Assembly: GCF_030384885.1 (NCBI RefSeq)
Contig: NZ_CP128613.1
From: Escherichia coli
GTDB taxonomy: Bacteria; Pseudomonadota; Gammaproteobacteria; Enterobacterales; Enterobacteriaceae
Reading direction: 5' to 3' (one strand)
Length of the DNA stretch: 64,000 nt
This document shows positions 2,974 to 18,414 of this stretch, in pieces. A program made the position numbers and the translations under genes. A model generated the notes under the pieces. The model searched no databases, had not been told where the DNA came from, and saw only the letters and a list, made by a program, of their open reading frames with translations. Positions within the stretch are counted from its first letter, which is position 1, and each line of letters starts with the position of its first letter.

Positions 2974-3374
2974 AGAAAATTTTTCCTTAAAGCAAATTTT
3001 ATTACTTTTATTTAGCCAGATTGTTTTTGAGTTCTGTTTTCGGCTTTTATAATTACTGCAAGAAATAATTTTATATTTAGAGTGTTGTTTTTTATTAGAA
3101 TAAATAACGTCTTCCGATACGTTTAAAACGTCAGAAAGATAAAAATATCATTTGAATTAAAAAAAGAACAAGTAGAGCATTAACCTTATCTTAAATAATA
3201 AATGGAGGCAAAAAGATTATTTTCTTTTTGCGTTTCCTTTCAAATGAAAACGATCGTCGTCTAAAATCAGCAGTACCCCCGACAAACTCAGGGATTTTGT
3301 GTATAATTGCGGCCTTTTTCGGCAATCTGCCGTTTTTTGGCGCTTTTGCCCTGCTGACTTTTGAGGAAATCCAC

Positions 3375-3710
3375 ATGTCATTACCACACTACCCAAAATG
3401 CAACTCCGAATACACCTACGAAGATAACGGCATGTACATCTGCCCGGAATGTGCCTACGAATGGAACGACGCAGAACCTGCACAGGAAAGCGATGAACTG
3501 ATCGTTAAAGATGCTAACGGCAATCTGCTGGCTGACGGCGACAGCGTTACCATCATTAAAGATCTGAAGGTGAAAGGTAGCTCTTCGATGCTGAAGATCG
3601 GTACCAAAGTGAAAAACATTCGCCTGGTTGAAGGCGACCACAACATCGATTGCAAAATCGACGGTTTTGGTCCGATGAAACTGAAATCTGAGTTTGTGAA
3701 AAAGAACTGA
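3375..3710 (+). CDS. yjdM: Zinc-ribbon protein YjdM (PhnA family)
   Basis: 111 aa from ATG 3375 with GAGG RBS; CPKC...CPEC zinc-ribbon motif. The ORF-track 160-aa version is an upstream in-frame extension that I reject. Confidence 0.85.
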
Positions 3711-3744
3711 TTGTATTGCTCAATGTAATATTGGCCCATGATCG

Positions 3745-3890
3745 GTAGGCCGGATAAGGCGCTCGCGCCGCATCCGGCTACGGTGCCGACTGCCTGATGC
3801 GACGCTCGCGCGTCTTATCAGGCCTACAAATTCTCGCACCATCCGGCAACGGTGCCTAATGCGACGCTTACCGAGTCTTATCAGCCCCCG
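3745..3890. repeat. REP/BIME cluster (three REP units)
   Basis: Repeated gccggataaggcgctcgcgccgcatccggc and ctgatgcgacgctcgcgcgtcttatcaggcctac palindromic units between yjdM and yjdN. Confidence 0.85.
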
Positions 3891-3949
3891 CTCATCTGTA
3901 TAATTTTCGAACTACACTTAACTGGCTTCTCTTAACTGAGGTCACCATC

Positions 3950-4393
3950 ATGCCGTTAAGTCCCTACCTCTCTTTTGCCGGTAACTGTTCCGACGCGATT
4001 GCCTATTATCAACGTACGTTGGGCGCGGAACTGCTCTATAAAATCAGCTTCGGCGAAATGCCGAAATCAGCGCAGGACAGCGCCGAGAACTGCCCTTCCG
4101 GTATGCAATTTCCCGATACCGCTATCGCCCATGCTAACGTGCGTATTGCCGGAAGCGATATCATGATGAGCGATGCCATACCGTCAGGAAAAGCCAGCTA
4201 CTCCGGCTTTACGCTGGTGCTCGATTCGCAACAGGTCGAAGAAGGAAAACGCTGGTTTGACAACCTTGCCGCTAACGGAAAAATCGAAATGGCCTGGCAG
4301 GAAACTTTCTGGGCGCATGGCTTCGGCAAAGTCACCGATAAATTTGGCGTACCGTGGATGATTAATGTCGTCAAACAACAACCAACGCACTAA
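3950..4393 (+). CDS. yjdN: Glyoxalase/VOC-family protein YjdN (PhnB-like)
   Basis: 147-aa ORF with GAGG RBS; position between yjdM and phnC. Confidence 0.8.
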   Translation: MPLSPYLSFAGNCSDAIAYYQRTLGAELLYKISFGEMPKSAQDSAENCPSGMQFPDTAIAHANVRIAGSDIMMSDAIPSGKASYSGFTLVLDSQQVEEGKRWFDNLAANGKIEMAWQETFWAHGFGKVTDKFGVPWMINVVKQQPTH

Positions 4394-4448
4394 CCCGCCG
4401 GGAGGCCCGCCCTCCCGCACTGTCATCGAATTCCCGTTAACTCTTCAT

Positions 4449-4470
4449 CTGTTAGTCACTTTTAGTTAAC
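4449..4470 (+). promoter_or_regulatory. Pho box (PhoB site) of the phnC promoter
   Basis: CTGTTAGTCAC-TTTTAGTTAAC resembles tandem CTGTCAT-type 7-bp repeats with A/T spacer, about 55-75 bp upstream of the phnC ATG. Confidence 0.6.
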
Positions 4471-4525
4471 AAAATCGTCACGATAATCCGCCACGATGGA
4501 GCCACTTTTTTAGGGAGGCTGCATC

Positions 4526-5314
4526 ATGCAAACGATTATCCGTGTCGAGAAGCTCGCCAAAACCTTCAATCAGCATCAGGCGCTGCATGCGGTTGATCTG
4601 AACATTCATCACGGTGAAATGGTAGCTCTGCTTGGGCCGTCCGGTTCCGGCAAATCCACCCTTTTACGTCATTTAAGCGGTTTGATTACCGGCGATAAAT
4701 CTGCCGGTAGCCATATCGAGCTGCTGGGCCGCACAGTCCAGCGCGAAGGCCGCCTGGCCCGCGATATCCGCAAAAGCCGCGCCAACACCGGCTACATCTT
4801 CCAACAATTCAACCTGGTGAATCGCCTGAGCGTACTGGAGAACGTGCTGATTGGCGCGCTCGGCAGCACGCCATTCTGGCGCACCTGTTTTAGCTACTTC
4901 ACCCACGAGCAGAAACAGCGCGCGTTACAGGCGCTGACCCGCGTTGGCATGGTGCACTTTGCCCATCAGCGCGTTTCCACCCTCTCCGGCGGACAGCAGC
5001 AGCGTGTGGCGATTGCCCGTGCGCTGATGCAGCAGGCGAAGGTGATTCTGGCGGACGAACCGATCGCCTCGCTGGACCCGGAATCGGCCCGCATCGTGAT
5101 GGATACCCTGCGCGACATCAACCAGAACGACGGCATCACCGTGGTGGTGACGCTGCATCAGGTGGATTACGCCCTGCGCTATTGCGAACGCATCGTCGCC
5201 CTGCGCCAGGGGCACGTCTTCTACGACGGCAGCAGCCAACAGTTTGACAACGAACGTTTTGACCATCTCTACCGCAGCATCAACCGCGTCGAAGAAAACG
5301 CGAAAGCTGCCTGA
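4526..5314 (+). CDS. phnC: Phosphonate ABC transporter ATP-binding protein
   Basis: 262 aa; Walker [13 protein letters not shown] signature LSGGQQQR; GGGAGG RBS. Confidence 0.95.
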
Positions 5315-5338
5315 CATCCCCATCATTGAGGAAAACGA

Positions 5339-6355
5339 ATGAACGCTAAGATAATTGCCTCGCTGGCCTTCACCAGCATGTTCAGCCTCAGCACCCTGTT
5401 AAGCCCGGCGCACGCCGAAGAGCAGGAAAAGGCGCTGAATTTCGGCATTATTTCAACGGAATCACAGCAAAACCTGAAACCGCAATGGACGCCGTTCTTA
5501 CAGGATATGGAGAAGAAGCTGGGCGTAAAGGTCAACGCCTTCTTTGCCCCGGACTACGCGGGCATTATCCAGGGGATGCGCTTCAATAAAGTGGATATCG
5601 CCTGGTACGGCAACCTGTCGGCAATGGAAGCAGTGGATCGCGCCAACGGTCAGGTCTTCGCCCAGACGGTCGCGGCGGATGGATCGCCGGGTTACTGGAG
5701 CGTGTTGATCGTCAACAAAGACAGTCCGATCAACAACCTGAACGATCTGCTGGCGAAGCGTAAAGATCTCACCTTTGGCAATGGCGATCCTAACTCCACC
5801 TCTGGCTTCCTCGTCCCCGGCTACTACGTCTTCGCCAAAAACAATATCTCCGCCAGCGACTTCAAGCGCACCGTCAACGCCGGGCATGAAACCAACGCGC
5901 TGGCCGTCGCCAACAAGCAGGTGGATGTGGCGACCAACAACACCGAGAACCTCGACAAGCTGAAAACCTCCGCACCGGAGAAGCTCAAAGAACTGAAGGT
6001 GATCTGGAAATCGCCGCTGATCCCAGGCGATCCGATCGTCTGGCGCAAAAATCTTTCCGAAACCACCAAAGACAAGATCTACGACTTCTTTATGAACTAC
6101 GGCAAAACGCCGGAAGAGAAAGCGGTGCTGGAGCGCCTGGGCTGGGCCCCGTTCCGCGCCTCCAGCGACCTGCAACTGGTGCCGATTCGCCAGCTCGCGC
6201 TGTTTAAAGAGATGCAGGGCGTGAAAGGCAATAAAGGGCTGAATGAGCAGGACAAGCTGGCAAAAACCAGCGCCATTCAGGCGCAACTGGATGACCTGGA
6301 CCGCCTGAACAACGCGTTAAGCGCGATGAGTTCGGTGAGTAAAGCGGTGCAGTAA
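5339..6355 (+). CDS. phnD: Phosphonate ABC transporter periplasmic binding protein
   Basis: 338 aa with N-terminal signal peptide ending AHA-EE; operon position. Confidence 0.95.
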   Translation: MNAKIIASLAFTSMFSLSTLLSPAHAEEQEKALNFGIISTESQQNLKPQWTPFLQDMEKKLGVKVNAFFAPDYAGIIQGMRFNKVDIAWYGNLSAMEAVDRANGQVFAQTVAADGSPGYWSVLIVNKDSPINNLNDLLAKRKDLTFGNGDPNSTSGFLVPGYYVFAKNNISASDFKRTVNAGHETNALAVANKQVDVATNNTENLDKLKTSAPEKLKELKVIWKSPLIPGDPIVWRKNLSETTKDKIYDFFMNYGKTPEEKAVLERLGWAPFRASSDLQLVPIRQLALFKEMQGVKGNKGLNEQDKLAKTSAIQAQLDDLDRLNNALSAMSSVSKAVQ

Positions 6356-6367
6356 TGTGCTCGATCG

Positions 6368-6462
6368 GTCCCCTCTCCCTTGAGGGAGAGGGTTAGGGTG
6401 AGGGGGAAATGCGCACGCTGGTGCCCTCACCCCGGCCCTCTCCCACAGGGAGAGGGAGAAAA
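6368..6462. repeat. GC-rich imperfect-palindrome intergenic repeat (boxC-like), phnD-phnE spacer
   Basis: cccctctccc-ttg-agggagagggttagggtgaggg and ccctcaccccggccctctccc-acag-ggagagggagaaaa modules. Confidence 0.6.
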
Positions 6463-6480
6463 CATTAAACGGAGCCAAAC

Positions 6481-7260
6481 ATGCAAACCATCACCATTGC
6501 CCCACCCAAGCGCAGCTGGTTCTCGATCTTCAGCTGGGCCGTTGTTCTCGCTGTACTGGTCGTCTCGTGGCAGGGCGCGGAAATGGCCCCGCTCACGCTG
6601 ATCAAAGACGGCGGCAACATGGCAACATTCGCCGCCGACTTCTTCCCGCCCGATTTCAGCCAGTGGCAGGATTACCTCACCGAAATGGCCGTCACGCTGC
6701 AAATCGCCGTCTGGGGCACTGCGCTGGCAGTCGTTCTCTCCATCCCCTTCGGCCTGATGAGCGCCGAAAACCTGGTGCCGTGGTGGGTGTACCAGCCCGT
6801 GCGCCGTCTGATGGACGCCTGCCGCGCCATTAACGAAATGGTCTTCGCCATGCTGTTCGTGGTCGCCGTCGGTCTCGGGCCGTTCGCTGGCGTGCTGGCG
6901 CTGTTTATTCACACCACCGGCGTGCTTTCCAAACTGCTTTCCGAAGCGGTGGAAGCGATTGAACCCGGCCCGGTGGAAGGTATTCGCGCCACTGGTGCCA
7001 ACAAGCTCGAAGAGATCCTCTACGGCGTGCTGCCGCAGGTGATGCCGCTGCTGATCTCCTACTCCCTCTATCGCTTCGAATCCAACGTCCGTTCGGCCAC
7101 CGTTGTTGGCATGGTCGGCGCTGGCGGGATCGGCGTCACGCTGTGGGAAGCGATTCGCGGTTTCCAGTTCCAGCAAACCTGCGCCCTGATGGTGCTGATT
7201 ATCGTCACGGTCAGCCTGCTGGATTTCCTCTCTCAACGGTTGCGTAAGCACTTTATCTGA
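6481..7260 (+). CDS. phnE: Phosphonate ABC transporter permease (uninterrupted reading frame)
   Basis: 259-aa hydrophobic multi-TM ORF with no internal stop or frameshift. Confidence 0.9.
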
Positions 7261-7280
7261 TAAGCGAGGCATTGATATCT

Positions 7281-8006
7281 ATGCACTTGTCTACACATCC
7301 GACCAGCTACCCAACACGCTATCAGGAGATAGCCGCAAAACTTGAGCAGGAGCTTCGTCAACACTACCGCTGCGGCGACTATCTTCCCGCCGAGCAGCAA
7401 CTGGCAGCGCGCTTTGAGGTGAATCGCCACACCCTGCGCCGTGCCATCGACCAACTGGTGGAAAAAGGCTGGGTACAGCGCCGTCAGGGCATCGGCGTAC
7501 TGGTGCTGATGCGCCCGTTCGATTACCCGCTCAACGCCCAGGCGCGTTTTAGCCAGAACCTGCTGGACCAGGGCAGCCATCCCACCAGCGAAAAACTGCT
7601 GTCGGTGCTGCGCCCCGCGTCCGGCCACGTCGCTGACGCGCTGGGGATCGCCGAGGGCGAGAACGTTATCCACCTGCGCACCCTGCGCCGGGTCAACGGC
7701 GTCGCGCTCTGTTTAATCGACCACTACTTTGCGGACCTCACCCTCTGGCCGACGCTGCAACGTTTCGACAGCGGCTCGCTGCACGATTTTCTGCGTGAGC
7801 AAACGGGGATTGCGCTGCGCCGCAGCCAGACGCGGATCAGCGCCCGCCGCGCCCAGGCCAAAGAGTGCCAGCGTCTTGAAATTCCGAATATGTCGCCGCT
7901 GCTGTGCGTGCGCACCCTTAACCACCGTGACGGTGAAAGCAGCCCGGCGGAGTACTCCGTCAGCCTGACGCGCGCCGACATGATTGAATTCACCATGGAG
8001 CACTGA
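7281..8006 (+). CDS. phnF: GntR-family transcriptional regulator of phosphonate operon
   Basis: 241 aa from ATG 7281; N-terminal GntR-type HTH region. Confidence 0.9.
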   Translation: MHLSTHPTSYPTRYQEIAAKLEQELRQHYRCGDYLPAEQQLAARFEVNRHTLRRAIDQLVEKGWVQRRQGIGVLVLMRPFDYPLNAQARFSQNLLDQGSHPTSEKLLSVLRPASGHVADALGIAEGENVIHLRTLRRVNGVALCLIDHYFADLTLWPTLQRFDSGSLHDFLREQTGIALRRSQTRISARRAQAKECQRLEIPNMSPLLCVRTLNHRDGESSPAEYSVSLTRADMIEFTMEH

Positions 8007-8459
8007 ATGCACGCAGATACCGCGACCCGCCAGCACTGGATGTCCGTGCTGGCGCACAGCCAACCGGCTGAACTGGCAGCCCGCCTGAAGGCGCTGAACA
8101 TCACCGCCGACTATGAGGTGATCCGCGCCGCTGAAACCGGCCTGGTACAGATTCAGGCGCGAATGGGTGGCACCGGCGAACGCTTTTTTGCCGGCGATGC
8201 CACGCTCACCCGCGCCGCCGTACGCCTGACTGACGGCACGCTCGGCTACAGCTGGGTGCTGGGGCGCGACAAACAGCACGCCGAACGCTGCGCGCTGATT
8301 GACGCGCTGATGCAGCAATCTCGCCACTTTCAAAACTTATCAGAAACCCTTATTGCCCCGCTGGACGCTGACCGTATGGCACGCATTGCCGCACGCCAGG
8401 CCGAAGTGAACGCCAGTCGGGTCGACTTCTTTACGATGGTTCGCGGAGACAACGCATGA
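8007..8459 (+). CDS. phnG: C-P lyase core complex subunit PhnG
   Basis: 150-aa ORF in conserved operon order. Confidence 0.9.
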
Positions 8460-9040
8460 CCCTGGAAACCGCTTTTATGCTTCCCGTGCAGGATGCCCAG
8501 CACAGTTTTCGTCGCCTGTTAAAGGCCATGAGCGAGCCGGGCGTGATTGTCGCCCTGCATCAGCTCAAACGCGGCTGGCAGCCGCTGAATATCGCCACCA
8601 CCAGCGTGCTGCTCACGCTGGCCGATAACGACACGCCGGTGTGGCTTTCCGCGCCATTAAGTAACGATATCGTCAGCCAGAGCCTGCGTTTTCATACCAA
8701 CGCCCCGCTGGTCAATCAGCCGGAACAGGCGACCTTCGCAGTGACGGATGAGGCGATTACCAGCGAGCAGCTCAACGCCCTTTCCACCGGCACCGCCGTT
8801 GCGCCGGAAGCCGGTGCGACGTTGATTTTACAGGTCACCAGCCTGAGCGGCGGACGCATGCTGCGCCTCACCGGCGCGGGTATTGCCGAAGAACGGATGA
8901 TCGCCCCGCAACTGCCGGAGTGCATTCTGCACGAACTCACCGAGCGCCCGCACCCGTTCCCGCTCGGCATCGACCTGATCCTGACCTGCGGCGAGCGCCT
9001 GCTGGCTATTCCGCGAACCACTCTTGTGGAGGTGTGCTGA
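8456..9040 (+). CDS. phnH: C-P lyase core complex subunit PhnH
   Basis: 194-aa ORF; start overlaps phnG stop (translational coupling). Confidence 0.9.
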
Positions 9041-10104
9041 TGTACGTTGCCGTGAAAGGGGGCGAGAAGGCGATCGACGCCGCCCACGCCCTGCAAGAGA
9101 GCCGACGCCGGGGCGATACCGATTTGCCTGAACTGAGCGTCGCCCAGATTGAACAGCAGCTTAATCTCGCGGTGGATCGCGTGATGACCGAAGGCGGCAT
9201 TGCCGACCGCGAACTGGCCGCACTGGCGCTGAAACAGGCCAGTGGCGATAACGTTGAAGCAATTTTCCTGCTGCGCGCCTACCGCACGACGCTGGCAAAA
9301 CTGGCGGTAAGCGAGCCGCTCGACACCACCGAGATGCGTCTCGAACGCCGTATCTCCGCCGTTTATAAAGACATTCCTGGCGGCCAGTTGCTTGGCCCGA
9401 CCTACGACTACACCCATCGCCTGCTGGATTTCACCCTGCTGGCGAATGGCGAAGCGCCGACGCTGACCACCGCCGACAGCGAGCAAGCCCCATCGCCGCA
9501 CGTTTTCAGCCTGCTGGCGCGTCAGGGGCTGGCGAAGTTTGAAGAGGATAGCGGCACACAGCCGGATGACATCACCCGCACGCCGCCGGTTTACCCCTGC
9601 TCACGCTCCTCCCGCCTGCAGCAGCTCATGCGCGGAGACGAAGGCTATTTGCTGGCGCTGGCCTACTCCACCCAGCGTGGTTACGGACGCAATCACCCGT
9701 TCGCAGGCGAAATCCGCAGTGGCTATATCGACGTCTCTATTGTGCCGGAAGAGCTGGGATTTGCGGTGAACATCGGCGAACTGCTGATGACCGAGTGTGA
9801 AATGGTCAACGGTTTTATCGACCCGCCGGATGAGCCGCCGCACTTCACGCGCGGCTACGGGCTGGTGTTCGGCATGAGCGAGCGCAAAGCGATGGCAATG
9901 GCGCTGGTTGACCGCGCTCTACAAGCCCCGGAGTACGGCGAGCACGCGACAGGCCCGGCGCAGGATGAAGAGTTCGTGCTGGCGCATGCCGACAACGTCG
10001 AAGCCGCAGGCTTTGTCTCGCACCTCAAACTCCCGCACTACGTCGATTTCCAGGCCGAGCTGGAGCTACTCAAACGTCTGCAACAGGAGCAGAACCATGG
10101 CTAA
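9040..10104 (+). CDS. phnI: C-P lyase subunit PhnI
   Basis: 354 aa from ATG 9040 overlapping the phnH stop (ATGA... overlap); ORF-track version is N-terminally extended. Confidence 0.9.
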   Translation: MYVAVKGGEKAIDAAHALQESRRRGDTDLPELSVAQIEQQLNLAVDRVMTEGGIADRELAALALKQASGDNVEAIFLLRAYRTTLAKLAVSEPLDTTEMRLERRISAVYKDIPGGQLLGPTYDYTHRLLDFTLLANGEAPTLTTADSEQAPSPHVFSLLARQGLAKFEEDSGTQPDDITRTPPVYPCSRSSRLQQLMRGDEGYLLALAYSTQRGYGRNHPFAGEIRSGYIDVSIVPEELGFAVNIGELLMTECEMVNGFIDPPDEPPHFTRGYGLVFGMSERKAMAMALVDRALQAPEYGEHATGPAQDEEFVLAHADNVEAAGFVSHLKLPHYVDFQAELELLKRLQQEQNHG

Positions 10105-10942
10105 TCTGAGCGGCTACAACTTTGCCTACCTCGACGAGCAGACCAAACGCATGATCCGCCGCGCCATCTTAAAAGCGGTGGCGATCCCCGGCTATCAGGT
10201 GCCGTTTGGCGGGCGCGAGATGCCGATGCCGTACGGCTGGGGAACCGGCGGCATACAGCTTACTGCCAGCGTGATTGGTGAAAGCGACGTGTTGAAGGTG
10301 ATTGACCAGGGCGCGGATGACACCACCAACGCGGTGTCGATTCGCAACTTCTTTAAGCGCGTGACCGGGGTAAACACCACTGAACGTACGGATGATGCGA
10401 CGCTTATCCAGACGCGCCACCGCATCCCCGAAACGCCACTGACCGAAGATCAGATCATTATCTTCCAGGTGCCGATCCCGGAACCGCTGCGCTTTATCGA
10501 GCCGCGCGAAACGGAGACCCGCACCATGCACGCGCTGGAGGAGTACGGCGTGATGCAGGTGAAGCTGTATGAAGATATCGCCCGCTTCGGTCATATCGCC
10601 ACCACCTACGCCTATCCGGTGAAGGTGAACGGGCGCTACGTCATGGACCCATCGCCGATCCCGAAATTCGATAACCCGAAAATGGACATGATGCCCGCCC
10701 TGCAGCTGTTCGGCGCAGGGCGCGAGAAGCGCATCTATGCGGTGCCGCCGTTTACCCGCGTGGAAAGTCTCGATTTCGACGATCACCCGTTCACCGTTCA
10801 GCAGTGGAATGAGCCATGCGCCATCTGCGGATCGACCCACAGCTATCTCGACGAAGTGGTGCTGGATGACGCCGGAAACCGCATGTTTGTCTGCTCCGAT
10901 ACCGATTATTGCCGCCAACAGAGCGAGGCGAAAAGCCAATGA
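10097..10942 (+). CDS. phnJ: C-P lyase catalytic subunit PhnJ
   Basis: 281 aa from ATG 10097; C-terminal Cys cluster CAICGS...CSDTDYC. Confidence 0.9.
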   Translation: MANLSGYNFAYLDEQTKRMIRRAILKAVAIPGYQVPFGGREMPMPYGWGTGGIQLTASVIGESDVLKVIDQGADDTTNAVSIRNFFKRVTGVNTTERTDDATLIQTRHRIPETPLTEDQIIIFQVPIPEPLRFIEPRETETRTMHALEEYGVMQVKLYEDIARFGHIATTYAYPVKVNGRYVMDPSPIPKFDNPKMDMMPALQLFGAGREKRIYAVPPFTRVESLDFDDHPFTVQQWNEPCAICGSTHSYLDEVVLDDAGNRMFVCSDTDYCRQQSEAKSQ

Positions 10943-11697
10943 ATCAACCGTTACTTTCGGTCAATAACCTGACCCACCTCTACGCACCGGGCAAAGGCTT
11001 CAGCGACGTTTCTTTTGATTTATGGCCGGGGGAAGTGCTGGGCATCGTCGGGGAATCCGGCTCCGGGAAGACCACGCTGCTGAAATCAATCTCCGCGCGC
11101 CTGACGCCGCAGCAGGGGGAGATTCACTATGAAAACCGTTCCCTCTATGGCATGAGCGAGGCCGACCGCCGTCGCCTGCTGCGCACCGAATGGGGCGTGG
11201 TGCATCAGCATCCGCTCGACGGCCTGCGCCGTCAGGTGTCAGCAGGCGGCAATATCGGCGAACGGCTGATGGCGACCGGGGCGCGTCATTACGGCGATAT
11301 TCGCGCCACCGCGCAGAAGTGGCTGGAAGAGGTGGAGATTCCCGCCAACCGTATCGACGATCTGCCGACCACTTTTTCCGGCGGCATGCAGCAGCGTTTG
11401 CAGATTGCCCGCAACCTGGTGACGCATCCGAAGCTGGTGTTTATGGACGAGCCAACCGGCGGGCTGGATGTGTCAGTGCAGGCACGCCTGCTCGACCTGC
11501 TGCGCGGTCTGGTGGTGGAGCTGAACCTGGCGGTGGTGATTGTCACCCATGATTTGGGCGTCGCCCGCCTGCTGGCGGACCGTTTGCTGGTGATGAAACA
11601 GGGTCAGGTGGTGGAGAGTGGGTTAACCGACCGCGTACTCGACGACCCACATCATCCGTATACCCAGTTGCTGGTGTCATCGGTTTTGCAGAATTGA
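10939..11697 (+). CDS. phnK: C-P lyase-associated ABC-type ATPase PhnK
   Basis: 252 aa; Walker A GESGSGKTT; start overlaps phnJ stop. Confidence 0.9.
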   Translation: MNQPLLSVNNLTHLYAPGKGFSDVSFDLWPGEVLGIVGESGSGKTTLLKSISARLTPQQGEIHYENRSLYGMSEADRRRLLRTEWGVVHQHPLDGLRRQVSAGGNIGERLMATGARHYGDIRATAQKWLEEVEIPANRIDDLPTTFSGGMQQRLQIARNLVTHPKLVFMDEPTGGLDVSVQARLLDLLRGLVVELNLAVVIVTHDLGVARLLADRLLVMKQGQVVESGLTDRVLDDPHHPYTQLLVSSVLQN

Positions 11698-11720
11698 GTT
11701 GCAACACTTTGCGCACTGAT

Positions 11721-11830
11721 CCCCTCACCCCGGCCCTCTCCCGGAGGGAGAGGGAGAAAACCGGCGCAATATTCAACACCGTGCACAAGCGGTCCCCTCG
11801 CCCCTTTGGGGAGAGGGTTAGGGTGAGGGG
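11721..11830. repeat. Second copy of the boxC-like repeat, phnK-phnL spacer
   Basis: Same two modules as at 6368-6462 but in swapped order. Confidence 0.6.
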
Positions 11831-11874
11831 CAATGTGCGCACCGCTCCCAAACATGCGAACCACGAGGCGAAAA

Positions 11875-12555
11875 ATGATTAACGTACAAAACATCAGTAA
11901 AACCTTCATCCTGCACCAACAAAACGGCGTGCGTCTGCCTGTATTACAACGCGCCTCGCTCACCGTCAACGCAGGCGAATGCGTGGTGCTCCACGGTCAC
12001 TCCGGCAGCGGCAAATCAACTCTGCTACGCTCGCTGTACGCCAACTATCTGCCCGACGAAGGGCAAATCCAGATCAAACACGGTGACGAATGGGTAGACC
12101 TGGTCACCGCGCCAACGCGCAAAGTGGTGGAAATCCGCAAAACCACTGTCGGCTGGGTAAGCCAGTTTCTGCGCGTCATCCCGCGTATTTCGGCACTGGA
12201 AGTGGTGATGCAGCCGCTGCTCGATACCGGCGTTCCGCGTGAAGCCTGCGCCGCTAAAGCCGCCCGATTACTGACGCGCCTGAACGTGCCTGAACGCCTG
12301 TGGCACCTGGCACCATCGACCTTCTCCGGCGGCGAACAGCAGCGCGTCAACATCGCCCGTGGCTTTATCGTCGACTATCCGATTCTGCTGCTGGATGAAC
12401 CCACCGCCTCGCTGGACGCTAAAAACAGCGCCGCCGTAGTGGAACTGATCCGCGAAGCCAAAGCCCGTGGCGCAGCCATCGTCGGCATCTTCCATGACGA
12501 AGCCGTACGCAATGACGTCGCCGACCGCCTGCACCCAATGGGAGCCTCTGCATGA
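11875..12555 (+). CDS. phnL: C-P lyase-associated ABC-type ATPase PhnL
   Basis: 226 aa from ATG 11875; Walker [10 protein letters not shown], signature FSGGEQQR. Confidence 0.9.
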
Positions 12556-13688
12556 TTATCAATAACGTCAAACTGGTGCTGGAAAACGAAGTGGTGCACG
12601 GTTCACTGGAAGTACAGGACGGTGAAATCCGCGCCTTTGCCGAAAGCCAGAGCCGCCTGCCAGAGGCGATGGACGGCGAAGGCGGCTGGCTGCTGCCGGG
12701 GCTGATTGAGCTGCATACCGACAACCTCGATAAATTCTTCACTCCGCGCCCAAAAGTGGACTGGCCTGCCCACTCGGCGATGAGCAGCCACGACGCGCTG
12801 ATGGTGGCGAGCGGCATCACCACCGTGCTGGATGCCGTGGCGATTGGCGACGTGCGCGACGGCGGCGATCGGCTGGAGAATCTGGAGAAGATGATCAACG
12901 CCATCGAAGAGACGCAGAAACGCGGGGTCAACCGCGCCGAGCACCGTCTGCACCTGCGTTGCGAACTGCCGCATCACACCACGCTGCCGCTGTTTGAAAA
13001 ACTGGTGCAGCGCGAACCGGTGACGCTGGTATCGCTGATGGACCACTCGCCGGGCCAGCGCCAGTTCGCCAATCGCGAGAAGTATCGCGAATATTACCAG
13101 GGCAAATACTCGCTCACCGATGCGCAGATGCAGCAGTACGAAGAGGAACAGCTGGCGCTTGCCGCACGCTGGTCGCAGCCGAATCGCGAAACCATCGCCG
13201 CAATATGCCGCGCGCGACAAATTGCCCTCGCCAGCCACGATGACGCCACGCGCGCGCACGTTGCCGAATCCCACCAGCTTGGCAGCGTAATCGCCGAATT
13301 TCCCACCACGTTCGAAGCGGCGGAAGCTTCGCGCAAGCATGGCATGAATGTATTGATGGGCGCGCCGAATATTGTGCGCGGCGGTTCGCACTCCGGCAAC
13401 GTGGCGGCCAGTGAACTGGCACAGCTTGGTCTGCTGGATATCCTCTCTTCCGACTACTACCCCGCCAGCCTGCTCGATGCGGCATTTCGCGTCGCCGATG
13501 ACGAGAGCAACCGCTTTACTCTGTCGCAGGCGGTGAAGCTGGTGACCAAAAATCCGGCGCAGGCGCTTAATCTTCAGGATCGCGGGGTGATTGGCGAGGG
13601 CAAACGCGCCGACCTGGTGCTGGCGCATCGCAAGGGCAACCACATTCATATCGATCACGTCTGGCGTCAGGGTAAAAGGGTGTTCTGA
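12552..13688 (+). CDS. phnM: Amidohydrolase-family phosphonate metabolism protein PhnM
   Basis: 378-aa ORF; start overlaps phnL stop. Confidence 0.9.
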
Positions 13689-14245
13689 TGACGGGAAAAC
13701 TGATTTGGTTAATGGGGGCCTCTGGCTCCGGAAAAGACAGTCTGTTGACGGAACTCCGCCAGCGGGAACAAACTCAGCTACTGGTAGCGCATCGCTACAT
13801 CACGCGCGCCGCCAGCGCCGGAAGTGAAAACCATATCGCCCTGAGCGAGCAGGAGTTTTTTACCCGCGCGGGGCAGAACCTTCTGGCCTTAAGCTGGCAC
13901 GCCAACGGCCTGTATTATGGCATCGGCGTCGAGATTGACCTCTGGCTGCACGCTGGATTTGACGTGGTGGTCAACGGCTCACGCGCCCATCTACCGCAGG
14001 CGCGGGCGCGCTATCAATCGGCGCTGCTGCCCGTTTGTTTACAGGTTTCGCCAGAGATCCTGCGCCAGCGCCTGGAAAACCGTGGCCGTGAAAACGCCAG
14101 TGAAATTAACGCCCGCCTGGCGCGTGCGGCCCGCTATACTCCACAGGATTGCCATACGCTCAACAATGACGGCAGCCTGCGCCAGTCGGTCGACACGCTG
14201 CTGACGCTGATTCATCAGAAGGAGAAACACCATGCCTGCTTGTGA
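13688..14245 (+). CDS. phnN: Ribose 1,5-bisphosphate phosphokinase PhnN
   Basis: 185 aa; P-loop GASGSGKDS. Confidence 0.9.
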
Positions 14246-14666
14246 GCTTCGTCCGGCCACGCAGTACGACACCGACGCGGTTTACGCGCTGATTTGTGAG
14301 CTAAAACAGGCGGAGTTTGACCACCACGCGTTTCGCGTGGGGTTTAACGCCAATCTGCGCGACCCGAACATGCGCTACCATCTGGCGCTGCTGGATGGCG
14401 AAGTTGTCGGCATGATCGGCCTGCATTTGCAGTTTCATCTGCATCATGTCAACTGGATCGGCGAAATTCAGGAACTGGTGGTGATGCCGCAGGCGCGCGG
14501 TCTGAACGTCGGCAGTAAATTACTGGCATGGGCCGAAGAAGAAGCCCGCCAGGCCGGGGCCGAAATGACCGAGCTTTCCACCAACGTCAAGCGCCACGAC
14601 GCGCACCGTTTCTATCTGCGCGAAGGCTACGAGCAGAGCCACTTCCGCTTCACCAAGGCGCTGTAA
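14232..14666 (+). CDS. phnO: Aminoalkylphosphonate N-acetyltransferase PhnO (GNAT)
   Basis: 144-aa ORF; operon position. Confidence 0.9.
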
Positions 14667-14667
14667 C

Positions 14668-15426
14668 ATGAGCCTGACCCTCACACTTACTGGCACTGGC
14701 GGCGCACAGGGTGTTCCCGCATGGGGCTGTGAGTGCGCGGCCTGCGCCAGAGCGCGGCGCTCACCGCAGTATCGCCGCCAGCCATGCAGCGGCGTCGTGA
14801 AGTTTAACGACGCGATCACCCTGATCGACGCCGGGCTGCACGATCTCGCCGATCGCTGGTCGCCCGGATCGTTCCAGCAGTTTTTGCTGACGCACTACCA
14901 TATGGATCACGTGCAGGGGCTGTTTCCGCTGCGCTGGGGCGTGGGCGATTCGATCCCGGTCTACGGCCCGCCGGATGAACAGGGCTGCGACGATCTGTTT
15001 AAACATCCGGGCCTGCTTGATTTCAGCCACACGGTGGAGCCATTTGTGATGTTTGATTTGCAGGGATTACAGGTCACGCCGCTGCCGCTCAACCATTCGA
15101 AACTCACTTTCGGCTATCTACTGGAAACGGCACATAGCCGGGTGGCGTGGCTGTCTGACACCGCAGGCCTGCCGGAAAAAACGGTGAAATTTTTACGCAA
15201 TAATCAGCCACAGGTAATGGTGATTGATTGCAGCCACCCACCGCGCGCGAATTCGCCACGCAATCACTGTGATTTAAACACCGTGCTGGCGCTGAATGAA
15301 GTTATCCGCTCGCCGCGCGTGGTTCTGACACATATCAGCCATCAGCTTGATGTGTGGCTGATGGAGAACGTACTGCCGTCAGGGTTTGAGGCGGGGTTTG
15401 ATGGGATGGAGATTGGGGTGGAGTGA
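14668..15426 (+). CDS. phnP: Phosphodiesterase PhnP (metallo-beta-lactamase fold)
   Basis: 252 aa; HxHxDH motif [10 protein letters not shown]. Confidence 0.9.
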
Positions 15427-15460
15427 TGGGTGAGGGGCGATGCCTGCTCTAAACTCAACA

Positions 15461-15858: not shown

Positions 15859-16176
15859 TCAATTTTTCCGCTGCTCTATTGCCGTAATCGCCTCCACGCG
15901 TTGTTGATGACGACCGCCTTCGTACTGCGCGCCCAGCCACACATCCACAATCATTTTTGCCAGTTCGAGGCCAACCACTCGTGAACCAAAAGCCAGTGCA
16001 ACTTCACTGGCGTAATGCGGATAATCAGTGCGCTCTGACGACCTGGTTTCTTTATCAATCCCCTCACTCATTGACCATGAATAAAAGGCTGGCACAGCAA
16101 CGCAGAATCCTGCGGTGCCAGCGACATGACCGCCCATTGCTCCGGTACGTTTTTTAATAAGAAACACCGGTTGCAT
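15859..16176 (-). pseudogene. rpiB: rpiB remnant (ribose-5-phosphate isomerase B, internally deleted)
   Basis: 105-aa ORF whose C-terminal ~55 aa (FGSRVVGLELAKMIVD...QRVEAITAIEQR) match the RpiB C-terminus as I remember it, while the N-terminal part does not and the central catalytic segment is missing. Confidence 0.55.
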
Positions 16177-16428
16177 TGATTAATTGTGCTCAGTATTTGC
16201 CGAAGTACAATATATATAATAAATATATAAAACACCTCATATTATTTACAGAAATAATAAATTCGCGTACTTTTCCCTCTTCAGCACAAATGCCTAATAA
16301 AATGGCTCGTTCCGCTCACACTTCCACTTATTAAAGTCGCAAATTCCCAATTATGATAACGCCAGCTTTAAATGACGTATTTTGCATGGATTACATATTT
16401 ACGACATAAATGATAAATGGAGATTTAT

Positions 16429-18414
16429 ATGAATAACTCTCGGTTATTCCGTTTGAGCAGGATTGTTATTGCGTTAACTGCCGCCAGCGGCATGATGGTA
16501 AATACCGCTCACGCAACAGATGAAGCGAAAGCCGCGACTCAATATACCCAGCAGGTTAATCAGCATTACGCAAAATCATTACCGTTTAGCGATCGTCAGG
16601 ACTTTGACGATGCCCAGCGCGGATTTATCGCCCCGCTGCTGGATGAAGGTATTCTGCGCGATGCGAATGGCAAAGTTTACTACCGCGCGGATGATTACAA
16701 ATTTGATATTAATGCCGCTGCGCCGGAAACCGTAAACCCCAGCCTGTGGCGTCAGTCGCAGATCAACGGCATTTCTGGCCTGTTCAAAGTCACCGATAAA
16801 ATGTATCAGGTACGCGGCCAGGATATCTCTAACATTACATTCGTTGAGGGCGAGAAAGGCATTATTGTTATCGACCCACTGGTAACGCCGCCTGCCGCAA
16901 AAGCCGCACTTGACCTTTACTTCCAGCATCGTCCGCAAAAACCGATTGTTGCTGTGATTTACACCCACAGCCACGCCGATCATTATGGCGGTGTGAAAGG
17001 CATTATCTCTGAAGCGGATGTTAAATCTGGCAAAGTGCAGGTGATCGCTCCGGCAGGCTTTATGGACGAAGCCATCAGCGAAAACGTGCTGGCGGGTAAC
17101 ATCATGAGCCGCCGTGCGCTCTACTCTTACGGTCTGTTACTGCCGCACAACGCGCAAGGCAACGTTGGCAACGGCCTGGGCGTGACGCTGGCAACGGGCG
17201 ACCCGAGCATTATTGCGCCAACCAAAACGATTGTCAGAACTGGCGAGAAGATGGTTATCGACGGTCTGGAGTTTGACTTCCTGATGACTCCGGGTAGCGA
17301 AGCGCCAGCCGAAATGCACTTCTATATTCCGGCCCTGAAAGCCCTGTGTACCGCCGAAAACGCCACGCATACCCTGCACAACTTCTACACCCTGCGCGGC
17401 GCGAAAACCCGCGATACCAGCAAGTGGACAGAGTATCTGAACGAAACGCTGGATATGTGGGGTAACGACGCGGAAGTACTGTTTATGCCGCACACCTGGC
17501 CGGTCTGGGGCAATAAGCATATCAATGATTATATTGGTAAATATCGCGATACTATCAAATACATTCACGACCAGACCCTGCACCTGGCGAACCAGGGTTA
17601 CACCATGAATGAAATCGGCGACATGATTAAGCTGCCACCTGCGCTTGCCAATAACTGGGCCAGCCGCGGCTATTACGGTTCTGTTAGCCACAACGCCCGT
17701 GCAGTATATAACTTCTATCTCGGCTATTATGACGGCAATCCAGCTAACCTACATCCGTACGGTCAGGTGGAGATGGGCAAACGTTACGTGAAAGCGCTGG
17801 GCGGTTCCGCCCGTGTCATCAACCTGGCGCAAGAAGCGAACAAGCAAGGGGATTACCGCTGGTCAGCAGAGTTGCTGAAACAGGTGATTGCCGCCAATCC
17901 GGGTGACCAGGTGGCGAAGAATCTGCAAGCAAATAACTTTGAACAGTTGGGTTATCAGGCCGAGTCCGCCACCTGGCGCGGTTTCTACCTGACCGGCGCA
18001 AAAGAGCTGCGCGAAGGGGTGCATAAGTTCAGCCACGGCACCACTGGTTCTCCGGACACCCTTCGCGGGATGTCGGTCGAAATGCTGTTCGACTTTATGG
18101 CCGTTCGTCTCGACAGCGAAAAAGCCGCGGGCAAAAACATCAGCCTGAACTTCAATATGAGTAACGGCGATAACCTCAACCTGACGCTGAACGATAGCGT
18201 GCTTAACTATCGTAAAACGCTACAACCTGAAGCCAACGCCTCTTTCTATATCAGCCGTGAAGATCTGCACGCCGTGCTGACCGGACAAGCCAAAATGGCG
18301 GATCTGGTAAAAGCGAAGAAAGCCAAAATTATTGGCAATGGCGCGAAACTGGAAGAAATTATCGCCTGTCTGGATAATTTCGATTTGTGGGTGAATATCG
18401 TAACCCCAAATTAA
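16429..18414 (+). CDS. yjcS: Alkyl/aryl-sulfatase-like metallo-beta-lactamase fold protein YjcS
   Basis: 661 aa from ATG 16429 (GGAG RBS); signal peptide; HxHxDH motif [11 protein letters not shown]. Confidence 0.85.

Follow-up and report, generated by a model that had tools for sequence, protein, structure and literature searches.

The spacer between phnD and phnE almost certainly holds an inverted tandem pair of BoxC repeats (also described as PIT elements and as TMECO triplex motifs), in which type A lies on the + strand and type B on the − strand, with a conserved linker in between; this assignment comes from base-by-base likeness to listed units of the family. Judging from the genomes compared, what the slot keeps is a stem-loop just past the stop codon of the binding-protein gene, and not a particular sequence, repeat family or orientation. 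The cassette may act on the phn mRNA as an RNA hairpin. We hold this role tentatively, at somewhat less than an even chance, on the grounds of folding predictions and comparison. Taken together as one statement, identity and mRNA-level role seem to us evenly balanced between true and false.

The kind of element is already known: the family, the inverted pairing of A and B, the instability and the collapse to a single hairpin have all been published. Added here are allele counts for the spacer, from 5,426 E. coli genomes, and the occupants of the same slot in 77 species representatives.

Composition and family of the phnD–phnE element

The window is the whole stretch of 64,000 nucleotides that was analysed. 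Its position 1 corresponds to position 3,106,000 of the 100%-identical record NZ_CP027579.1 (E. coli 2013C-4282 chromosome), and gene names were taken from the RefSeq annotation of that record. The phnD–phnE spacer is 125 bp long, from the phnD stop codon to the phnE start codon at 6481. The two genes and the features between them are as follows.

5339–6355, + strand: phnD, substrate-binding protein of a phosphonate ABC transporter (ORF list and RefSeq annotation of the identical record), stop codon TAA at 6353–6355
6356–6463, no strand assigned: BoxC composite cassette of 108 bp, consisting of left flank TGTGCTCGATCGGTC, unit A, linker, unit B and right flank AGAAAAC, delimited by homology to paralogous copies
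6371–6405, + strand: BoxC/TMECO type A unit, 34 of 35 bases identical to TMECO no. 2 of MG1655 (PMC4666352, Table 1)
6406–6422, no strand assigned: 17-nt linker GAAATGCGCACGCTGGT between units A and B, apical loop region of the long hairpin
6423–6456, − strand: BoxC/TMECO type B unit, 34 of 34 bases identical to TMECO nos. 1 and 4 of MG1655 (PMC4666352, Table 1)
6471–6483, + strand: phnE Shine–Dalgarno sequence GGAG (6471–6474) and start codon ATG (6481–6483), both outside the main hairpin
6481–7260, + strand: phnE, permease gene, intact with 259 aa (ORF list and RefSeq annotation); in K-12 phnE is a pseudogene

The cassette fills the spacer from the first base past the phnD stop to 7 nt before the phnE ribosome-binding site. 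A first-pass annotation of this DNA had described a GC-rich palindromic repeat of about 95 bp between phnD and phnE at 6368–6462. The palindrome was confirmed and its coordinates were essentially right, with homology running over 6356–6463; its membership in the BoxC/PIT/TMECO family had been missed. Unit A is built of the pyrimidine block CCCTCTCCC (6371–6379), loop TTGA, the purine block GGGAGAGGG (6384–6392), loop TTA and a third block GGGTGAGGG (6396–6404). Unit B, read 5′ to 3′ on the − strand from 6456 down to 6423, runs CCCTCTCCC, TGT, GGGAGAGGG, CCG, GGGTGAGGG and a last C. Both diagnostic second loops were therefore present, TTA for type A and CCG for type B. The three-block architecture of the family (CCCTC[T/G]CCC, GGGAGAGGG and GGGTGAGGG, with short loops) was found at 6371–6404 on the + strand and at 6424–6456 on the − strand.

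On the + strand, the second module forms a local hairpin of CCCTCTCCC (6436–6444), loop ACA and GGGAGAGGG (6448–6456), and the CCCTCACCC block (6424–6432) is the complement of the third block of the first module. Two hairpin-forming modules had been described in the first-pass annotation. The first of them was exact; the second was slightly mis-paired, as CCCTCACCCC had been matched with GGAGAGGG, while the true partner of CCCTCACCC is the third block of module 1. The hairpin pattern occurred once and the two-block pattern four times in the window, each with an expected count of 0.00 in dinucleotide shuffles. The linker (6406–6422) was conserved in paralogous and orthologous copies of the cassette.

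The family reportedly has an earlier literature under the names BoxC and PIT (potential intrastrand triplex), with work by Bergler in 1992, Bachellier in 1996, and Hoyne and Maher in 2000 and 2002. Holder et al. (2015, PMC4666352), who list 23 MG1655 units in their Table 1, equate the TMECO repeats with BoxC as known from the 1990s and with the PIT elements that Hoyne and Maher had described. The phnD–phnE pair is absent from this K-12 list because K-12 fills the site with a REP pair. In K-12, an inverted A+B pair occurs at five sites, and the TMECO repeats are always intergenic, with no positional or functional bias suggesting regulation and no association with mobile elements (PMC4666352). 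The survey in that study covered 63 loci in 56 strains; among the entries listed in its supplement, phnD, phnE and phnK led only to the phnP–yjdP locus (PMC4666352). Another survey names BoxC among the known stem-loop repeat families of E. coli (PMC2267715).

As a BLAST query, the cassette had matches in 5,332 of the 5,426 complete E. coli genomes, with a median of 13 places in each; the genome-wide copy count proposed in the first-pass annotation thus gave a dispersed element. Inside the window, four BoxC units were found at two sites (0 expected), all of them intergenic. The best paralog of the cassette was the A/B pair in the K-12 hrpB–mrcB spacer, with 94.4% identity and with the same left flank TGTGCTCGATCGGTC and right flank GAGAAAAC. 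No target-site duplication was visible at the phnD–phnE or the hrpB–mrcB copy, which were the only two insertion sites compared, and the inverted ends are inherent to a palindrome.

The other BoxC site of the window lies further along the operon, in the phnK–phnL spacer (11698–11874).

11722–11829, no strand assigned: second BoxC composite, with a B unit at 11722–11754 (− strand) and an A-mm unit at 11795–11829 (+ strand), third blocks facing outward

MG1655 has a REP pair in this spacer instead. BoxC alleles were found here in 545 of the 5,426 genomes, and REP alleles in 4,840. The phnP–yjdP spacer (15427–15460) is only 34 bp long in the window and keeps a GGGTGAGGGG remnant. In MG1655 the same spacer has 146 bp with a BoxC composite (TMECO no. 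22), which is 87% identical to the phnK–phnL composite of the window but inverted relative to the operon. The yjdM–yjdN spacer (3711–3949), the site of REP325, showed one unit of about 100 bp (3742–3845) against five tandem copies in MG1655; the REP325 array of K-12 is therefore much shorter in the window strain.

The region from yjdM to phnP (3109–15428) was about 94–95% identical to MG1655, a divergence far above that of typical E. coli core genes. Over positions 5900–6900, none of the other complete genomes reached at least 99% identity. The sequences suggest a divergent phn haplotype, either old or imported. Beyond phnP, a truncated rpiB homologue (105 aa) abuts yjcS (15859–16430), and the alsRBACEK (D-allose) genes, which lie between these two genes in MG1655, are absent.

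Predicted RNA structure of the spacer

RNA folding was done with ViennaRNA, and triplexes are outside its model. The spacer RNA gave an MFE of −73.1 kcal/mol, compared with −46.7 ± 4.0 kcal/mol in dinucleotide shuffles (z −6.66), and 0 of 200 shuffles were as stable. The MFE structure contains one long hairpin.

6369–6459, + strand: predicted phn mRNA hairpin of 36 bp, GC-rich, beginning 13 nt past the phnD stop, with no U-run after it

An alternative fold with two local hairpins reached only −36.7 kcal/mol. The first-pass annotation had made its idea depend on a stable predicted structure, and the 36-bp hairpin at −73 kcal/mol clearly provides one.

A strong stem-loop of this kind might be taken for an intrinsic terminator, and the mechanical ORFs that overlap the element (6380–6601 on the + strand; 6317–6478 on the − strand) might be taken for coding sequence. 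We consider it very improbable that the element terminates transcription intrinsically, is a promoter, or encodes a small RNA or a peptide. No T-run comes after the stem on either strand: there the + strand reads AGAAAACATTAAA and the − strand ACCGATCGAGCACA. As no U-run follows the stem, the element is not an intrinsic terminator. The promoter and terminator scan called no terminator-like site and no sigma-70 promoter match at the element. No Rfam family reached its gathering score in positions 6000–6900 (E up to 10), the best match having 28 bits against 168. The overlapping ORFs derive from the repeat itself and are broken in other alleles.

Two further candidates were rejected. The microRNA-like hairpin matches from Rfam were regarded as chance, with at most 28 bits against thresholds of 55–168. 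A weak outer helix (6356–6362 with 6472–6477), touching the phnE Shine–Dalgarno sequence, was considered for a role in sequestering that sequence, and it was unmatched in the REP allele.

Alleles of the spacer in E. coli and in other species

The alleles were counted in 5,426 complete E. coli genomes. Three allele classes were observed in the spacer: REP/BIME, BoxC pair and collapsed BoxC. The REP/BIME pair allele (about 105 bp, as in MG1655) was the most frequent and was found in 3,874 genomes (71%). BoxC-derived alleles were found in 1,330 genomes, of which 351 had the full pair and about 979 (about 18% of all genomes) had a collapsed form. The predicted RNA stability was −73.1 kcal/mol for the pair, −50.5 kcal/mol for the REP allele, and −23 to −24 kcal/mol for the collapsed alleles. 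Because alleles about threefold apart in predicted stability (−23 to −73 kcal/mol) coexist in one species, any effect on expression must be either tolerant of large changes or weak.

The collapsed alleles have at least three forms, each from its own deletion, and their outer flanks are the same as those of the pair. The form with loop ACA resulted from a 65-bp deletion between the CCCTCTCCC repeats at 6371 and 6436 (strain Z0117EC0056). The form with loop TTGA resulted from a 64-bp deletion between the GGGAGAGGG repeats at 6384 and 6448 (strain HS). A third form, with the TTGA hairpin and TTAGGG, resulted from a 58-bp deletion and was seen in two further strains. The palindrome is thus unstable at the DNA level and collapses through deletion between its internal 9-bp direct repeats. 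Since such deletions explain the collapsed forms, the allele sequences indicate that the pair is ancestral to the short alleles and that several independent collapses took place. The full 95-bp structure is not required, because the pair readily collapses to a single 9-bp hairpin in the population. The hairpin kept in the collapsed alleles was also considered as a sign of selection. We rejected this, as any deletion between direct repeats within this palindrome is bound to leave a hairpin behind.

The collapse of the phnD–phnE pair matches the ‘palindrome effect’ published for TMECO loci, which are more variable between strains than controls (PMC4666352). Holder et al. proposed a DNA-level explanation, in which the G-rich strand of each unit, when single-stranded, would form an intrastrand purine-motif triplex, stall replication or repair, and create a local hotspot of variation. 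The blocks do obey the purine-motif rules: by eye, the third block antiparallel to GGGAGAGGG gives 7 G.G:C, 1 A.A:T and 1 T.A:T. The isolated strand forms a triplex in vitro (PMC4666352), and the phnD–phnE locus directly shows variability of the kind reported for the family. However, in vivo DMS footprinting and CD/NMR of the duplex gave no triplex signal (PMC4666352), and the deletions observed here need only short direct repeats in a palindrome. Collapsed alleles, which have lost the third block, persist in about 18% of genomes, and instability is a property and not a demonstrated function. Altogether we find the triplex explanation of the element improbable.

For other species, PhnD was scanned in one genome per species, and the spacers from phnD stop to phnE start were taken from 77 loci; Escherichia was covered by the E. 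coli collection. BoxC occupied 39 of the 77 spacers and REP-type palindromes 26, while 12 had neither. Most of these 12 spacers showed a unique GC-rich stem-loop (Atlantibacter, Enterobacillus, Vibrio and locus L081). Only two loci, L082 and L083 of the Enterobacteriaceae, were without a hairpin, and their spacers had 22–23 nt. The fold z of the 77 spacers had a median of −4.8, and 93.5% were below −2. The matched control, 110 nt upstream of phnC in the same loci, had a median z of +0.1, and 6% were below −2. The CGGAGC...ATG motif was kept in nearly all of the 77 spacers.

The BoxC pairs at the slot were found in four configurations: A+B− (4, with one tandem duplicate in addition), B+A− (7), A−B+ (8) and B−A+ (3). 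Lone hairpins numbered 10. Type A was always paired with type B, in 22 intact two-unit pairs and one tandem-duplicated A/B pair. The occurrence of all four A/B orientations is expected if only the palindrome matters. The A+B− cassette of the window was found at the same site in Enterobacter hormaechei, E. wuhouensis, E. sichuanensis and Kluyvera, and Lelliottia has the same cassette reverse-complemented.

Several loci showed unusual spacers. Locus L011 (2218–2468) carries a tandem duplication of the whole A/B cassette, with four units in a 251-nt spacer, and locus L012 has the collapsed TTGA hairpin in its phnD–phnE spacer. These two loci are from Pseudocitrobacter faecalis and P. vendiensis, whose PhnD is 99% identical to the E. 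coli protein; this suggests from sequence a recent transfer of the phn operon of Pseudocitrobacter. Arrays of extra repeated subunits of about 45–55 nt were seen between flanking BoxC units in loci L030 (2218–2496), L079 (2218–2442), L055 (2218–2478) and L086 (2218–2419). One example is the Pseudenterobacter spacer, with four copies of CACGAGTAAACGAAGGCACGGCGCCCTTCCCCGTG.

The cassette might also be a neutral or selfish repeat without function. The spacer would then be a permissive place or a preferred target where BoxC and REP elements land, replace one another and decay, and an ancestral functional hairpin may have drawn them there. The extreme turnover fits this, with three allele classes in E. 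coli and with four pair orientations and arrays across species. The collapsed forms outnumber the intact pair (about 979 against 351), alleles with threefold different stability coexist, and the hairpin that survives a collapse is the mechanical outcome of deletion between direct repeats and not of selection. The same families fill the phnK–phnL and phnP–yjdP spacers, neither of which follows a binding-protein gene. Published tests point the same way: Hoyne and Maher, as Holder et al. summarise their work, detected neither promoter nor terminator activity of PIT elements, nor any effect on RNA polymerase or role in expression (PMC4666352). Against a neutral repeat, a unique stable hairpin is still present where the slot holds neither BoxC nor REP (Atlantibacter, Enterobacillus, Vibrio and L081), and in these genomes the non-coding control shows no structure. 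Moreover, E. coli and Enterobacter share about 98% identity in the cassette core, against 81–84% in the flanking coding DNA. A core more conserved than its coding flanks argues for constraint or for continual homogenisation. We see a neutral repeat as possible but not probable.

Possible mRNA-level role and comparison with known repeats

A stem-loop that is kept while sequence, family and orientation change is the signature expected of a hairpin that functions at the RNA level. In such a role, the cassette, once transcribed with the phn operon, would form a long GC-rich hairpin in the RNA immediately 3′ of phnD. The hairpin could block 3′-to-5′ exonucleolytic decay of the phnCD segment. It could also, or instead, attenuate read-through in part and Rho-dependently, as REPs do, between phnCD and phnE–P. 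Either effect would leave more binding-protein mRNA relative to phnE and the later genes. The role would need only a stem-loop. This would account for the variety found at the slot in other strains and species, from REP/BIME elements to lone BoxC hairpins, BoxC pairs in every orientation and unrelated unique hairpins. The first-pass annotation had suggested an mRNA stabiliser or processing site; this is plausible and, with the comparative evidence behind it, partly supported.

The REPs that follow binding-protein genes at malE–malF and hisJ–hisQ reportedly have the same stabiliser and attenuator effect. A hairpin within 15 nt of a stop codon, in turn, is said to cause ribosome stalling and tmRNA tagging. 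Lying 13 nt past the stop, the predicted hairpin could instead reduce PhnD by stalling the ribosome, which leaves the direction of the effect uncertain. REPs are documented stabiliser and attenuator elements inside operons; in yjdMN, the operon next to phn, REP325 makes the upstream mRNA more stable and partly terminates transcription into the downstream gene (bioRxiv 10.64898/2026.03.23.713779). RNA-seq of K-12 showed that expression varies and falls along the phn operon (PMC3734233).

One intercistronic slot thus keeps a stable stem-loop from Vibrio to Escherichia while its occupants swap. A wider proposal is that BoxC cassettes are interchangeable hairpin modules, which replace REP/BIME elements and unique stem-loops at the slot (in Enterobacteriaceae and Vibrio) and tune the ratio of phnCD to downstream expression. 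In a related form, the 108-bp A/B cassette would be mobile and would home to pre-existing hairpins in either orientation. We rate this proposal as unlikely. If it were true, allele switching between pair, collapsed hairpin and REP would give strain-level variation in transporter stoichiometry. The natural E. coli alleles, from −23 to −73 kcal/mol, form a ready allelic series for a question beyond the scope of the earlier promoter and terminator assays, namely whether BoxC acts on mRNA as REPs do. If it does, strains would come to differ in operon stoichiometry through the turnover of repeats.

Compared with MITEs and REPIN-like elements, the cassette is similarly discrete (108 bp), has inverted-repeat ends and occurs at unlinked loci (phnD–phnE and hrpB–mrcB), and both orientations are found at one slot across species. 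At the two copies compared, no target-site duplication of the kind made by a MITE was visible.

The likeness to REP/BIME elements is one of form. Both are paired inverted GC-rich palindromes with a linker, lie just past a stop codon inside an operon and are predicted to form a stable RNA hairpin. The sequence families are unrelated, however, and the element does not have the GCCGGATG...CTTATCCGGCCTAC consensus of REPs. No REP words were found in the window spacer, and the REP allele of other strains aligns to it at the flanks only. REPs come with a RAYT transposase, and proteins that partner with them are known; for BoxC we know of no mobilising enzyme, cognate transposase or binding protein.

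The closest known system is the BoxC/PIT/TMECO family itself. The element shares with it identical or near-identical units, the three blocks, the A and B loops, and the inverted A+B pairing with a conserved linker. The intergenic position 10–60 nt past a stop codon, the presence or absence between strains and the collapse to a single hairpin are also common to both. No structural difference was seen; the location within an operon has a K-12 counterpart in TMECO no. 19, found between pstA and pstB.
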